A DNA stretch of 64,000 bases from Candidatus Obscuribacteraceae bacterium (lineage in GTDB: Bacteria; Cyanobacteriota; Vampirovibrionia; Obscuribacterales; Obscuribacteraceae): the NCBI GenBank assembly GCA_044229845.1, contig JBGASG010000005.1:160001-224000 (forward strand). Reading direction: 5' to 3'. Shown here one piece after another: positions 38,277 through 47,470 of this stretch (positions are counted from its first letter, which is position 1; every line of letters starts with the position of its first letter). The notes under the pieces are model-generated. The model had not been told where the DNA came from. It saw only the letters and a list, made by a program, of their open reading frames with translations, and made no database searches. The position numbers and the translations under genes are program-made.

Positions 38277-39290
38277 GTGCTAGACCAAATTGAGCCGCTT
38301 AAGTCAGAGAGTGCAGCAGGGCAGGAGAAAGGCAACCTGCAGGACTACCGAGTTCAACGCACAAGCGCCGAGCCACAGGATCGGGATCCCAATGCGCCGT
38401 TGATCAGTGCCAATGTTTTGCCGGAGGTCGAACTCTGTCATGCACAGATCAGAGCACCGGGGGCGCCGGTTGATCCGCCTCTGGACAACAATCCCTACAA
38501 TCCGCGTGGACAGCGCACCTTGACTGAGCCGGCGACCTCCACGTGGGATGACTTCAACGACGCAATGCGCGACGCTATTGGTTTGGCACCGGACGATCGC
38601 AGTGGAATGCGGCGCCGCGTAGTGGGCCAACCGAATATCGAGATTGTCGGCAACCCAACTAACATCGACCAGATGACCGAAGCGATTGGTCGGCTGCCGC
38701 CGGAAGTGAGGCAGCTTCTCGATGAGAAAGGTTACAAGTTTGTCCTGACGGACAACTTGCGCAATCACGACCCGATACTGGTCGATAACCAACCGACCGG
38801 CTGGCAGCAAGGATCTTCGTGGAGAAATGCTGATGGCCGTTTCCAGAACGATAAGAATGAAATCGTAGTCGCCAGTCATGCCGTCGATTTGTATCTGCAG
38901 CAGTACAGAGAGTCCACGCGCGGCAAAGGAGTTTTGCTGCACGAAACCGCCCACGCTGTGGACAAAGCGCTTGGCTATTTCTCTGACAGCAAGGAATTTA
39001 AAGAGGCGTACGAGCGGGACATCGCCAACCTTTCCCCCGAAGATCGAGCGAAATACTCTTACTACCTGACCAGAGTTGCAAGCAGCGCAGATCCTGCGGC
39101 TGCCGGACGCGGCGAAGCATTCGCGGATGTTTGGGCCGAGATGAATGGATCGGCCGCCAACAAAGATCCCGACCTACTGGCGAAATTCCCTAATGTGAAG
39201 AAGGCAATCGAAGAGCGTATGGAGCGCCTGCGCCAGGAGCAGGACGCGACGCGCGCCACATATCAGTGGAATTCGGGATTTCCTGGTTAG
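38277..39290 (+). CDS. Anthrax lethal factor-like (ATLF / Pro-Pro endopeptidase-like) zinc metalloprotease
   Basis: LPPEVRQLL..KG, P.GW..GSSW, LLHETAHAVD (HEXXH), S.SKEFKEAY and GEAFAD. GGAGG RBS; no Sec signal. Confidence 0.8.
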   Translation: MLDQIEPLKSESAAGQEKGNLQDYRVQRTSAEPQDRDPNAPLISANVLPEVELCHAQIRAPGAPVDPPLDNNPYNPRGQRTLTEPATSTWDDFNDAMRDAIGLAPDDRSGMRRRVVGQPNIEIVGNPTNIDQMTEAIGRLPPEVRQLLDEKGYKFVLTDNLRNHDPILVDNQPTGWQQGSSWRNADGRFQNDKNEIVVASHAVDLYLQQYRESTRGKGVLLHETAHAVDKALGYFSDSKEFKEAYERDIANLSPEDRAKYSYYLTRVASSADPAAAGRGEAFADVWAEMNGSAANKDPDLLAKFPNVKKAIEERMERLRQEQDATRATYQWNSGFPG

Positions 39291-39449
39291 TTTTGGGGAG
39301 TTGCGAGCCGGTTCCGCAGCAGTCCGGTACGATGCCCTGGATTTGAAAAAAGGGCATTTCACAAAATTGCCACGCCTTCCTGATATAAGGAAAGTCCTTG
39401 CTCGCTGCTTCGCCTCTCCAGGGGCTTACTAATTTCGCTGGTAACACTC

Positions 39450-44800: not shown

Positions 44801-44857
44801 ACCAGAATCCATAAAGAGACCCTTTCAGGGGTCGCATTCACTCAGGGAGGATACGCC

Positions 44858-47470
44858 TTGGTTGATCACCTTGACGCGCCTTTGGAGCCGTTAAAAGGTC
44901 CCGCTACGGACGGACTGGATGACGTCCGTGCGACGGCGCTGAGTGATGCGAGCGTGCGTGCTGCTGTCTCTCACGATGGGGTGGGAGACAGTAATACGCC
45001 GTTGGTGTCGGCACGCTTGATACCGCCGATGATTCTCGTTGATGCGCGTGACCGTCCCGGGGAACCGCAGTCCGCAGCTGACGCGTTCAATCAGCTCGGA
45101 GACCGATCCCAGCCAGGCGGCGACAAAGTTTTTACCACTCCCGACGGCAATCAGGTCGTGACCAGACCGGATGGTTCGACGATCTACAGGGATGCGAACA
45201 ATCGCGTGTTCGGCGTTCGTTATCCCAACGGCGACATGCGCACTTTCACCTACAACTCAAAGGGTGAAGTCGACACCGTCATGGAGAACAACCGCCTCTA
45301 CACCGTCAACGGCGATCGTGAATTGGTCGGACCGGACGGCAAACCAACGGGTTTGAAGATGCCACAGGTCACGAAGGAAGGCACCTACATCTTCACCGAT
45401 TCGCAACGGGGAATTCACTTTCAATACAGCGATCGCCGCGAGTCGATTTCGCAGAACGACGGTTCGACACTTAGTAAGGATGGCGATGGGCGCATCACGG
45501 GTATCCGTTACATCGACGGCACGCACCGCTACTTCGAGTATGACGAACGCGGACGCACGAATGGCATCATCGACTGTGACGGCAAACGTTATGGGTTTGT
45601 GGCATCGTTCGATGCACTAGGCATGCGCTTCGGCAGCTTCAAGGCCGCTGGCGGTACGACCATGAGCGATGTTTCGCTTGAGCCCGATGGTACGCTGCGA
45701 TTCGAAGACCAGGACGGCAAGCTCCACACTGACTATGCAAGCGGCAACTCGTCGCGGACAACTTTGACCGCCGGCGAACTGCGCAATATGGCGATGCTAC
45801 TGCGCATCACTGACTGGGCAGTCACCAGCAATGAAACTATTCGCGAGACAGTCGCCAAACTCCTGCCCAGTGATCGAGTTGCGCTCGATCGCCAATACAA
45901 AGAAATGTATGGAGAAACACTGACCGACCATCTGAAAGCCCAGCGCTGGAACCCGCTCAAGCGCGAGGCCGTAGATGCGACGCTCAGTATGTTGTCGGAA
46001 GCCCACTTGCGCGAGGCAGTGCAGAAGGCTTTCAGCGATCACAGAGATGTGTTCGCTGCCGAGACCCAATTGTTCGACTTCAATCAGCGGGCAGCCAGAG
46101 CCGGTTTGACGCCTGAGCAAATCATCGCGGTGCGCGAGAAAGCCGCCGCAGAATTGCAGAACAACGACAAGTCACCGAAGGGCAAATTGGAGTCGCTGGA
46201 AAAAATCTTCACCGAAGCCGCACCAACCATGCGGGCTCTTGAAGAGAGATTCGGCGTCACGTCCACCGAGGTTGTCCGCCCCGACGGCACGCGCGTTCGT
46301 CGATACTATGTCGAGGGAGAAAATGGTCAGAAGACGCAGGTCCTCGACACCACCAGCGATGATCCAAAGGAAATCGAACGCCAATTAACTCAATGGCGTG
46401 AAGCCAAGATCAAAGAGATTGAAGCAAAGTACAATCTGCAGATCAGTCGCGATGGACAGACTGACCGCCTGCAGGGCAAAGATGCCGACTTGCGCGCGCC
46501 GCGCATCGACGAATTGCTGGCGCTCGAGCAAGCCGCGATGCGCTCGCAGCCCAGTGCCAGATCAGCCAACGGCAAGCCGGTGCGTGTCGAGTTTACCGTA
46601 CGCCCGTCGACTCCATATGACGCGTATGTGCCGGGACGTGTCAGCGACGATGAGCAGGAGAGAATCGTTTTCGAACCGCTGTCACGGACGTTCAAAGGCT
46701 TCAAGGATACGGCGATGCACGAGTTTGCCCACATCGGCCAACACAACATGCGCCAGCGCGATGCCGCGGCTCTCGACACGGCATTCGAAGCGATGGGCTA
46801 TCGCAGAGTGAAGACCGATGACGGGGCGATGCAATGGCAACTAAAAGGAAAGGACGGCAATTACTACACTGAGAATCCGAACGGCACCGGTTGGACGCGG
46901 GTAGATGAAAAAGGGCGTCCGCTCAAGACTGACGGCAAACCTGCCTCCGGATTTAAAGATAAAGACGCAGTCACGATCAGCAGCACGGAGATACAAGAGC
47001 GCGCCGTAGTCAGACCGGCATCCTGGTACTTTACCAACCCCGTCGAAAATCAAGCCGAAGGGTTGTGGCTCTTCAGAGGTGGAGAACAAGATCGCACGCG
47101 GCTCTTCACCACATCTCCCGAGCTGTACAAGATCATCAAGGAATACGACCAGAAAGAGATCGATGCCGATCCGCGGTACGGGAAGAATTCCGACGGCACC
47201 GCCAAGTTTATTCGCTTGCCTGACGGAACCATAGGCGAGAACAACGAAGCTAACCGAGCCATAGTGACTCAGTTCGAAAAGAAAATGCCTCGTCCTTTTG
47301 TGTTCGGAGTTCCGGAAGTTCGGTCACCGCAACCTTGGGATAAGGAAACCAAGTCGCCCAGCGACTCCGGTCAAAAACAGCGTGACCCACGTCCGGTTCC
47401 TACCCATCCCGGCGGCACGCTGCCGCGCATCATGCCGTCATGCCCGTGCTGTGCCAATCAAGCAGGCTGA
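44858..47470 (+). CDS. Modular effector-like protein: YD-like repeats, annexin-like segment and HEXXH metallopeptidase-like domain
   Basis: YPNGDMRTFTYNSKG and YIDGTHRYFEYDERG; LPSDRVALDRQYKEMYGETLTDHL; MHEFAHIG and NPVENQAE; C-terminal CPCC. GGGAGG before the TTG start. Confidence 0.75.
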   Translation: MVDHLDAPLEPLKGPATDGLDDVRATALSDASVRAAVSHDGVGDSNTPLVSARLIPPMILVDARDRPGEPQSAADAFNQLGDRSQPGGDKVFTTPDGNQVVTRPDGSTIYRDANNRVFGVRYPNGDMRTFTYNSKGEVDTVMENNRLYTVNGDRELVGPDGKPTGLKMPQVTKEGTYIFTDSQRGIHFQYSDRRESISQNDGSTLSKDGDGRITGIRYIDGTHRYFEYDERGRTNGIIDCDGKRYGFVASFDALGMRFGSFKAAGGTTMSDVSLEPDGTLRFEDQDGKLHTDYASGNSSRTTLTAGELRNMAMLLRITDWAVTSNETIRETVAKLLPSDRVALDRQYKEMYGETLTDHLKAQRWNPLKREAVDATLSMLSEAHLREAVQKAFSDHRDVFAAETQLFDFNQRAARAGLTPEQIIAVREKAAAELQNNDKSPKGKLESLEKIFTEAAPTMRALEERFGVTSTEVVRPDGTRVRRYYVEGENGQKTQVLDTTSDDPKEIERQLTQWREAKIKEIEAKYNLQISRDGQTDRLQGKDADLRAPRIDELLALEQAAMRSQPSARSANGKPVRVEFTVRPSTPYDAYVPGRVSDDEQERIVFEPLSRTFKGFKDTAMHEFAHIGQHNMRQRDAAALDTAFEAMGYRRVKTDDGAMQWQLKGKDGNYYTENPNGTGWTRVDEKGRPLKTDGKPASGFKDKDAVTISSTEIQERAVVRPASWYFTNPVENQAEGLWLFRGGEQDRTRLFTTSPELYKIIKEYDQKEIDADPRYGKNSDGTAKFIRLPDGTIGENNEANRAIVTQFEKKMPRPFVFGVPEVRSPQPWDKETKSPSDSGQKQRDPRPVPTHPGGTLPRIMPSCPCCANQAG

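Follow-up and report, generated by a model that had tools for sequence, protein, structure and literature searches.

The locus and its genes

The window analysed here is a stretch of 64,000 nucleotides from an uncultured, non-photosynthetic member of the Obscuribacterales (Candidatus Obscuribacteraceae bacterium, assembly GCA_044229845.1, contig JBGASG010000005.1, positions 160,001 to 224,000); the genome, G000 in our working labels, is 88% complete. Three of its genes, designated 38277, 39450 and 44858 after their first nucleotide, encode unrelated putative enzymes that share an acidic N-terminal leader followed by a short motif, called the tag below. Those homologues that bear a name belong to Candidatus Obscuribacterales, Obscuribacter and Melainabacteria, the majority being nameless and of assumed taxonomy. 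The DNA runs that contain this stretch are chiefly sludge and bioreactor metagenomes. The features concerned are as follows (residues are counted from the start of each protein).

38277..39290, + strand: 38277 protein, 337 residues, zincin metalloprotease-like (HETAH at residue 222), with acidic leader and tag
38277..38399, + strand: 38277 leader, residues 1-41, acidic and of low hydrophobicity, alike over its full length to the 44858 leader
38400..38435, + strand: 38277 tag LISANVLPEVEL, residues 42-53
39450..40667, + strand: 39450 protein, 405 residues: leader and tag, alpha/beta domain (residues 72-190), linker, predicted SleB-fold lytic transglycosylase domain
39594..39629, + strand: 39450 tag LVEANILPDARL, residues 49-60, degenerate
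40173..40556, + strand: SleB-like putative catalytic domain of 39450, residues 242-369, from structure comparison and alignment
44858..47470, + strand: 44858 protein, 870 residues: leader and tag, YD/RHS-like repeats, zincin domain (HEFAH at residue 621)
45002..45037, + strand: 44858 tag LVSARLIPPMIL, residues 49-60

The sequence-only reading of this DNA had reported the three motifs, and all of them were recovered at residues 42, 49 and 49 of confirmed open reading frames (ORFs). It had also noticed three further elements, EPLK, L[QD]D[YV]R and D[PS]N[AT]PL, which are indeed common to 38277 and 44858 and are not present in 39450. As it had proposed, none of the proteins has a Sec signal, the maximum 11-residue hydropathy in the first 50 residues being only 0.76-0.89 (signal peptides were called throughout by a hydropathy heuristic, not by SignalP). 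Nor was a twin-arginine (Tat) signal found, no RR pair occurring within the first 35 residues of the three proteins.

The downstream domains are unrelated, a SleB-fold wall hydrolase on the one hand and two zincin proteases on the other. The match of 38277 to PF07737 is weak (E 2e-5, 24.8 bits, under the cut-off of 27.4), as are the YD/RHS repeats of 44858 (RHS, E 0.0055). The 39450 protein matches no Pfam family, SleB/Hydrolase_2 included, and a PDB sequence search with its alignment returned nothing significant. Structure comparison of its C-terminal domain retrieved SleB structures with Z scores of 12.7 (4fet; root-mean-square deviation 3.1, 116 aligned residues) and 12.4 (4f55), the next unrelated match having a Z score of 4.2. 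Residue E262 is invariant across 54 sequences, and the domain is predicted from its model to be a SleB-fold lytic transglycosylase with a conserved catalytic Glu. In the same model, the leader forms two helices (residues 29-38 and 42-51; predicted local distance difference test about 80) and a disordered linker precedes the cargo.

The leaders of 38277 and 44858 are mutual best matches, with a local score of 59 against maxima of 43 and 55 among 4266 other N-termini. The likeness of the 39450 leader to that of 38277 is weak (score 39, reached by 6-8 of the 4266 N-termini) and its likeness to that of 44858 is not significant (score 29, reached by 230-257). A search of the ESM Atlas gave no usable match for the 44858 leader. 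Contigs from RNA libraries cover pieces of 39450 in 4 of 4 runs, of 44858 in 3 of 4 and of 38277 in 1 of 4, counts that were made without a silent-gene control.

A wider N-terminal tag

The strict consensus given by the sequence-only reading matches only its own three proteins among the 4594 ORFs of the genome. This uniqueness is circular, because the consensus was built from those three proteins, and the consensus is too narrow for the wider tag described below. When a profile was built from nothing but these three motifs, it retrieved no other convincing carrier in the genome; the tag emerged only through homologues.

The homologues carry a wider tag, L-x3-G-x-[LF]P-x-[LIV]-x-[LIV]-x-[DGE], located after an acidic leader of about 45-70 residues without signal peptide. 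The order is an acidic leader of low hydrophobicity, the tag, a variable linker, then unrelated cargo domains. Among the three window tags, only LISANVLPEVEL of 38277 fits the family core [LF]P-x-h-x-h (h, hydrophobic) exactly. Orthologues of 39450 have a canonical core instead (LPETHL, LPNTTV) and the same site in a 42%-identical homologue of 44858 is DANAPLVAAGVIPQIDFTD. The three window motifs are degenerate local versions of the wider tag.

An independent profile was made from 62 seeds obtained by homologue searches, the seeds of the closest orthologues being excluded. With this profile, the site reported earlier is the top-scoring one within each whole protein, with modest scores of 8.2, 6.0 and 6.9 bits for 38277, 39450 and 44858 (shuffle P 0.045, 0.12 and 0.115). 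The weaker version, LYHSDVLP, that the sequence-only reading had seen in a giant protein of the window (giant 1) did not hold up (0.9 bits, shuffle P 0.84), and giant 1 was excluded.

Three homologue sets were counted. The 39450 set comprises 72 Met-starting homologues, after exclusion of the query, the nearest orthologue, non-Met fragments and 8 distant matches without such a leader. The 44858 set started from 148 representatives, which the hydropathy rule divided into 129 without and 13 with signal peptide, 6 non-Met sequences being dropped. The 38277 set consists of 54 homologues from the loci of relatives, 23 without and 31 with signal. The core lies at residues 46-75 in 26/72, 31/129 and 3/23 of the members without signal (39450, 44858 and 38277, respectively; shuffle means 0.4, 1.2 and 0.3) and in 1/13 and 0/31 of the signal-bearing members of the 44858 and 38277 families. 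For the two zincin families together, this amounts to 34/152 against 1/44 (Fisher P=0.0013). Over residues 16-130, the core is found in 38/72, 36/129 and 6/23 members without signal (shuffle means 1.5, 4.4 and 0.9) and in 3/13 and 4/31 signal-bearing ones (0.7 and 1.5). All these family counts are somewhat optimistic, since the pattern was read first from the 39450 family and widened after the second one, and the 46-75 interval was chosen from the histogram.

Held-out profiles (at least 10 bits) link the families in both directions. Trained on the 39450 family, the profile matches 7/129 of the 44858 zincin family (shuffle 0.12%); trained on the zincin family, it matches 21/72 of the 39450 family (shuffle 0.35%). 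Downstream control windows gave 0/127 and 1/72, and the 38277 family gave 3/23 without signal against 0/31 with signal. Furthermore, clustering by leader divides the 80 carriers into 50 clusters; in 39 of these the core is at residues 48-75, and in one it is earlier than 48. Columns outside the search pattern are also biased, with L at -6 in 17/50 clusters, G at -2 in 17/50 and G, D or E at +7 in 32/50. Between close orthologues, the majority of insertions and deletions are located in the linker right after the motif.

The motif therefore occurs neither at background frequency nor at scattered positions: it holds a narrow position across unrelated families, well above shuffles. The portable N-terminal tag on Sec-less proteins postulated earlier is upheld by this fixed position in unrelated families and by its depletion in signal-bearing members.

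A second class of leader strand (hG-x-h-x-h-x-D, DGS[IV]xF), defined by eye and left out of the counts above, was seen in 11/93 zincin members without LP (shuffle 1.0); it is barely enriched in the source genome (7/273 against 3.6). An unbiased enumeration of patterns over all N-termini of the genome returned mainly kinase-type and compositional patterns. Ser/Thr kinase-like N-termini are abundant there and dominate genome-wide pattern counts.

Tag carriers in the genome and in related orders

By simple ORF calling, with uncertain starts, 273 of the 3626 proteins of at least 150 residues in the source genome have an acidic leader. Residues 46-60 of this set hold 11 core matches, whereas the other bins average 1.5 each (Poisson P 6e-7); membrane proteins account for some of the genome core matches. 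Proteins of the LysM, RHS, clostripain, calpain-like (with EF-hand), trypsin, FHA/annexin and SPFH kinds are found among carriers and near-carriers, and a GDSL lipase carrier is found in a relative. SleB, LysM and clostripain proteins normally act outside the cytoplasm.

Both zincin families turned up in a single family of the order, f1 (24/25 and 21/25 f1 genomes, 0/16 others). In a sample from sister orders (564 proteins, 800 kb of G030 plus G028), none of 12 acidic-leader proteins has the core at residues 46-75, about 2 being expected at the rate of the source genome; the Obscuribacterales side of this comparison consists of loci from relatives, not of a matched random sample. Another leader motif, hydrophobic-x-F-[GK], showed no clear enrichment in the two samples compared.

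Upstream sites and neighbouring genes

Three other features lie close to the tagged genes.

38138..38153, + strand: 16-bp site GTAACGTCTCGGTAAT (GTAA-N7-GTAA repeat) upstream of 38277, candidate shared regulator site
44742..44757, + strand: the 16-bp site again, as an exact copy, upstream of 44858
47522..47920, + strand: 132-residue protein directly 3' of 44858, no Pfam match, possible partner

The 16-bp site lies about 140 nt upstream of 38277 and about 115 nt upstream of 44858, and these are the only 2 exact copies in the genome. It also precedes the same-genus orthologue of 38277. Near copies (G000 C14:13127, 15007, 119930 and 6223) stand before another carrier, on contig C14, as well as several further genes, part of which encode signal peptides. 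This suggests co-regulation, with a candidate transcription-factor regulon, or else a copied 5' cassette. The site was not seen ahead of the operons described below that resemble a type IV secretion system (T4SS), so that it provides no regulatory link between tag and machine. Like 44858, its paralogue on contig C9 has a similar-looking gene after it.

Another upstream motif, TTACT in 5' untranslated regions, was dropped: it was enriched in the source genome (25/273 against 157/3353, P=0.003) but not in relatives (5/52 against 40/500). TTTACT(A) was observed near the start codons of effector-like genes, including 39450 and several carriers, and was not replicated in relatives.

Elsewhere in the window, two giant repeat proteins with acidic N-termini (25641-31730 and 32337-38123; 2029 and 1928 residues) share a C-terminal domain (60% over 209 residues) that has weak homologues in at least 6 other ORFs of the genome and no confident Pfam match. 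TPR-CHAT and TPR-caspase proteins are encoded at 5600-8959 of the window and at G000 C22:253600-256371. A SMI1/KNR4 (SUKH) protein is encoded at 59504-60631; this family is usually linked to immunity against polymorphic toxins.

Candidate export machines

The sequence-only reading had supposed a dedicated export or injection machine encoded outside the window, of type III/flagellar, type IV, type VI or contractile injection system (CIS) type. Markers of the type III/flagellar, type VI and CIS classes were not found, which leaves as candidate a conserved T4SS-like set of genes located elsewhere in the genome. Matches to FlhA/SctV (PF00771) were obtained for 0/28 Obscuribacterales, 13/13 other Vampirovibrionia and 4/14 control genomes. 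Several of the other Vampirovibrionia (G029, G030, G035, G036, G040 and G028) have two long FlhA/SctV homologues, a hint of a second type III system besides the flagellum. The contractile sheath PF17482 was found in 0/21 Obscuribacterales, and neither PF04984 nor PF05943 (sheath/VipB of type VI secretion systems and extracellular CIS) was found in the 88% complete G000; a PF06841 search, whose control was silent, is not used as evidence. WXG100 (PF06013) was not found in G000, where the only PF01580 matches are the VirB4s, leaving no EccC/EssC-type ATPase of a type VII system.

Obscuribacterales have three conserved T4SS-type modules, whose ATPases belong to three families of VirB4 type and up to three of VirD4 type. 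The set holds a VirB4 ATPase, a VirD4-type coupling ATPase and, as in a conjugative T4SS, a relaxase-like gene.

Operon 1 encodes a VirB4, two large proteins with multiple transmembrane segments, small membrane proteins and an OEP-like protein, and is syntenic amid housekeeping genes. Its VirB4 is matched in 28/28 genomes, mostly with 76-100% identity (in one genome only via a paralogue), and weakly in 2/13 outside the order. VirB4 profile matches include PF19044 (E 9e-22) and NF045971 (E 4e-58, below the equivalog cut-off), the Gram-positive CD1110 model being nearest. The multi-transmembrane and small proteins that flank virB4 match no Pfam or NCBIfam family, and the candidate labels VirB6 and VirB8 come from size, topology and position. 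The OEP-like protein is conserved in the operon and its OEP/TolC-type match is weak (E 5e-5). A VirB9/VirB10 core was not identified, VirB7, VirB9 and VirB10 not having been searched by family. A stand-alone extra copy of this VirB4 (66% identical) is found at G000 C13:100089-102914 and also in the same-genus genome G001.

Operon 2, read at 4 loci, encodes a second VirB4, a PF02534 coupling protein (E 1e-16 in a relative) and a Replic_Relax (MOBC-like) protein whose N-terminus is basic and without tag. The Replic_Relax gene is missing from G000, whose contig ends inside the operon; the relaxases PF03432 and PF08751 were not found in that genome either. An early conclusion from the PF02534 search, that VirD4 was lacking, was abandoned as the result of an assembly gap and a profile miss. 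The chromosomal order VirB4-2, small membrane protein, VirD4, Replic_Relax is order-wide (L092:9591-17182, L094, L095, L093). Its gene content suggests a conjugation module that has been domesticated, perhaps to exchange chromosomal DNA.

Module 3 is located as follows in the source genome.

G000 C18:209349-245336 (L103, L104): VirD4-like pair, VirB4-like ATPase, small protein, four giants

The VirD4-like proteins of this module have a zinc ribbon, a membrane anchor and long disordered N-terminal halves. They are present in 25/28 Obscuribacterales, 0/13 other Vampirovibrionia and 1/150 of a phylum sample, and match PF10412 above cut-off (E 3e-8); a PDB sequence search with the VirD4-like domain found nothing significant. 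The divergent VirB4-like ATPase (DUF87) is found in 26/28 and 57/61 genomes, is 77-84% identical within f1, and adjoins the VirD4-like gene in 20 of the 25 genomes that have both. Its N-terminal domain has the TrwK/VirB4 fold (Z 11.9; Foldseek E 7e-5). Short free-standing copies of this domain, possible adaptors, occur in other genomes (G001 C20, G016 C2:56561, G052 C11, G082 C23). Among 5 relatives' loci read, 4 have a small conserved protein next after the ATPases. The operon of G000 is followed on the same strand by four giants (1295-3443 residues), none of them a membrane protein and three with LysM-like matches.

Comparison with known systems

Recruitment by T4SS coupling proteins, such as the Legionella DotL coupling complex with IcmS/W, Xanthomonas XVIPCD-VirD4 or Helicobacter CagA/CagF, resembles the situation described here by a portable signal on diverse cargo and by VirD4/VirB4-type ATPases. 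One of these machines, the X-T4SS, delivers antibacterial effectors (PMC10025392, PMC12857230). The Obscuribacterales tag differs from T4SS signals described there by its N-terminal location, at about residues 48-75 after an acidic leader. Furthermore, unlike in Legionella, Xanthomonas or Helicobacter, the VirB4 is nearest to the Gram-positive CD1110 model and no VirB9/VirB10 core was recognised, no family search having been aimed at it.

The chromosomal T4SS of Patescibacteria (MPF-FATA-like) is lineage-wide, has a monoderm-type VirB4 and coupling proteins often encoded far from virB4, and has been proposed to play a co-opted role (PMC12102498). The Obscuribacterales set is likewise lineage-wide, chromosomal and of monoderm type. 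However, Patescibacteria mostly lack relaxases (PMC12102498), whereas Replic_Relax is kept in one Obscuribacterales operon. The main text of that source makes no mention of Cyanobacteria or Melainabacteria, and no substrate tag is named in the part covered here. The T4SS of Vampirovibrio chlorellavorus, a member of the same class, was proposed to deliver hydrolytic enzymes to its prey; its VirB4 is of T type and the system is partly plasmid-borne (PMC4451040). Searches with the Obscuribacterales VirB4 and VirD4-like queries gave no strong match in sister orders.

Type III substrates also have an unstructured N-terminus followed by a binding segment, the chaperone-binding domain (PMC10025392). 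Their leader is polar and uncharged, whereas the Obscuribacterales leader is acidic and FlhA/SctV is found in none of the 28 genomes. No paper on this tag or machine was found in the open text of the literature, supplements, which could list genes, being outside this scope.

Proposed function and alternatives

The tag is real, lineage-wide and apparently undescribed, and the candidate machine is a strong one. The reading that we favour, tentatively and at somewhat less than even odds, is that the tag is a lineage-wide N-terminal mark on signal-peptide-free enzymes of Obscuribacterales, routing their export via the chromosomal T4SS-like machine. This caution follows from the two steps involved: that tagged proteins are exported seems probable and, given export, that the T4SS-like modules serve as the route seems rather likely. 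We infer both export and the link between tag and machine from sequence and gene inventory. In such a mechanism, the core, with its alternating hydrophobic residues, would dock in strand form on a coupling protein or adaptor; a hexameric ATPase would thread the unstructured acidic leader, and a single step would take the cargo, unfolded, to the envelope or into a contacted cell. Proteins would be carried by the modules that have no relaxase (operon 1 with its VirB4, and the two VirD4-like proteins together with the divergent VirB4), while operon 2, with its relaxase-like gene, would move DNA. A bolder version is doubtful: a multi-ATPase T4SS of monoderm type might have been domesticated in Obscuribacterales and become an order-wide injector of dozens of wall hydrolases and proteases into neighbours. 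It would use an N-terminal signal defined by distance in a lineage without flagellar or type III export, a proposal held with the same reserve.

Several points weigh against export through the T4SS-like machine. Tag and machine co-occur through one event in one lineage, which deprives their co-occurrence of statistical weight, and most T4SS signals described so far are C-terminal, internal or bipartite (PMC10025392). The family counts are optimistic, as said above; the core is found in only about a quarter to a half of the non-Sec family members, and one signal-peptide-bearing protein, P0235, also has it, at residue 49. Across the genome, the count over residues 16-130 is only slightly in excess (24/273, against a shuffle mean of 13 and a shuffle maximum of 24). 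Of the window motifs, two out of three lie outside the core pattern, and a clear tag is absent from window giants 1 and 2 and from the four giants beside the VirD4-like operon. Family f2 has the machine and neither zincin cargo family (0/3). Finally, Replic_Relax is found in 25/27 Obscuribacterales relatives, beside operon 2 in the 4 loci read; together with the neighbouring coupling protein, it makes at least one module look like DNA transfer.

This last observation would also fit a reading, rather unlikely in our view, in which the T4SS-like genes serve DNA only and the tag is an export or chaperone-binding signal read by another route: a YbjN-family protein, which we take to have the T3SS-chaperone (CesT) fold, would hand cargo to Tad, vesicles or an unrecognised channel. 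The range of YbjN (23/25 f1 genomes, 0/3 f2, 0/13 others) matches that of both zincin cargo families, and T3SS chaperones bind their cargo by strand addition. Two Tad ATPase clusters are present in the source genome. However, Tad and type II secretion substrates cross the inner membrane via Sec or Tat first, and these proteins lack such signals. YbjN is also found in bacteria without such cargo (6/14 control genomes), FlhA was not found in any of the 28 Obscuribacterales, and three families each of VirB4 and VirD4 type are more than DNA transfer by itself would require. The position of the tag resembles that of a T3SS chaperone-binding domain after its unstructured signal (PMC10025392).

It is also unlikely that the tag has no role in export and is an intracellular docking strand, a degron or a pro-region that keeps dangerous enzymes inactive or targets them to a protease or an internal structure. 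An unstructured N-terminal tail with a short hydrophobic strand is also the anatomy of AAA+ protease degrons; the two-helix leader and disordered linker of the 39450 model, and the occurrence of the 16-bp site before other genes, are compatible with such a role. However, a SleB-fold hydrolase and LysM domains have no cytoplasmic substrate, and a single strand would be unlikely to inhibit many unrelated folds. Moreover, the near exclusion of tag and signal peptide within the same catalytic families is what alternative export routes predict. Least probable is that the motif is a functionless remnant of a 5' cassette (regulator site, ribosome site and leader) copied onto new genes: the whole leader and identical upstream 16-mer common to 38277 and 44858 do point to a local copy of this kind, but the core is kept at a narrow distance from the start in 50 otherwise unalignable leader clusters, and orthologues vary mostly in the linker just after it.

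Significance

The lifestyle of Obscuribacterales is essentially obscure and their genomes are rich in large hypothetical proteins. The shared tag sorts part of these proteins into one testable class and predicts their site of action. If the link with the T4SS-like machine is true, this would be a T4SS with an N-terminal signal, in contrast to the mostly C-terminal known ones, and Obscuribacterales would join Patescibacteria as a second large lineage to have domesticated a T4SS of monoderm type. The link would also hint at why they resist culture, a prey or host being needed, and would bear on the spread of predation among the non-photosynthetic sisters of cyanobacteria. Should injection into neighbours prove true as well, these common sludge and soil bacteria would be unrecognised contact killers or parasites, and the tag would provide a sequence rule for listing their effectors.

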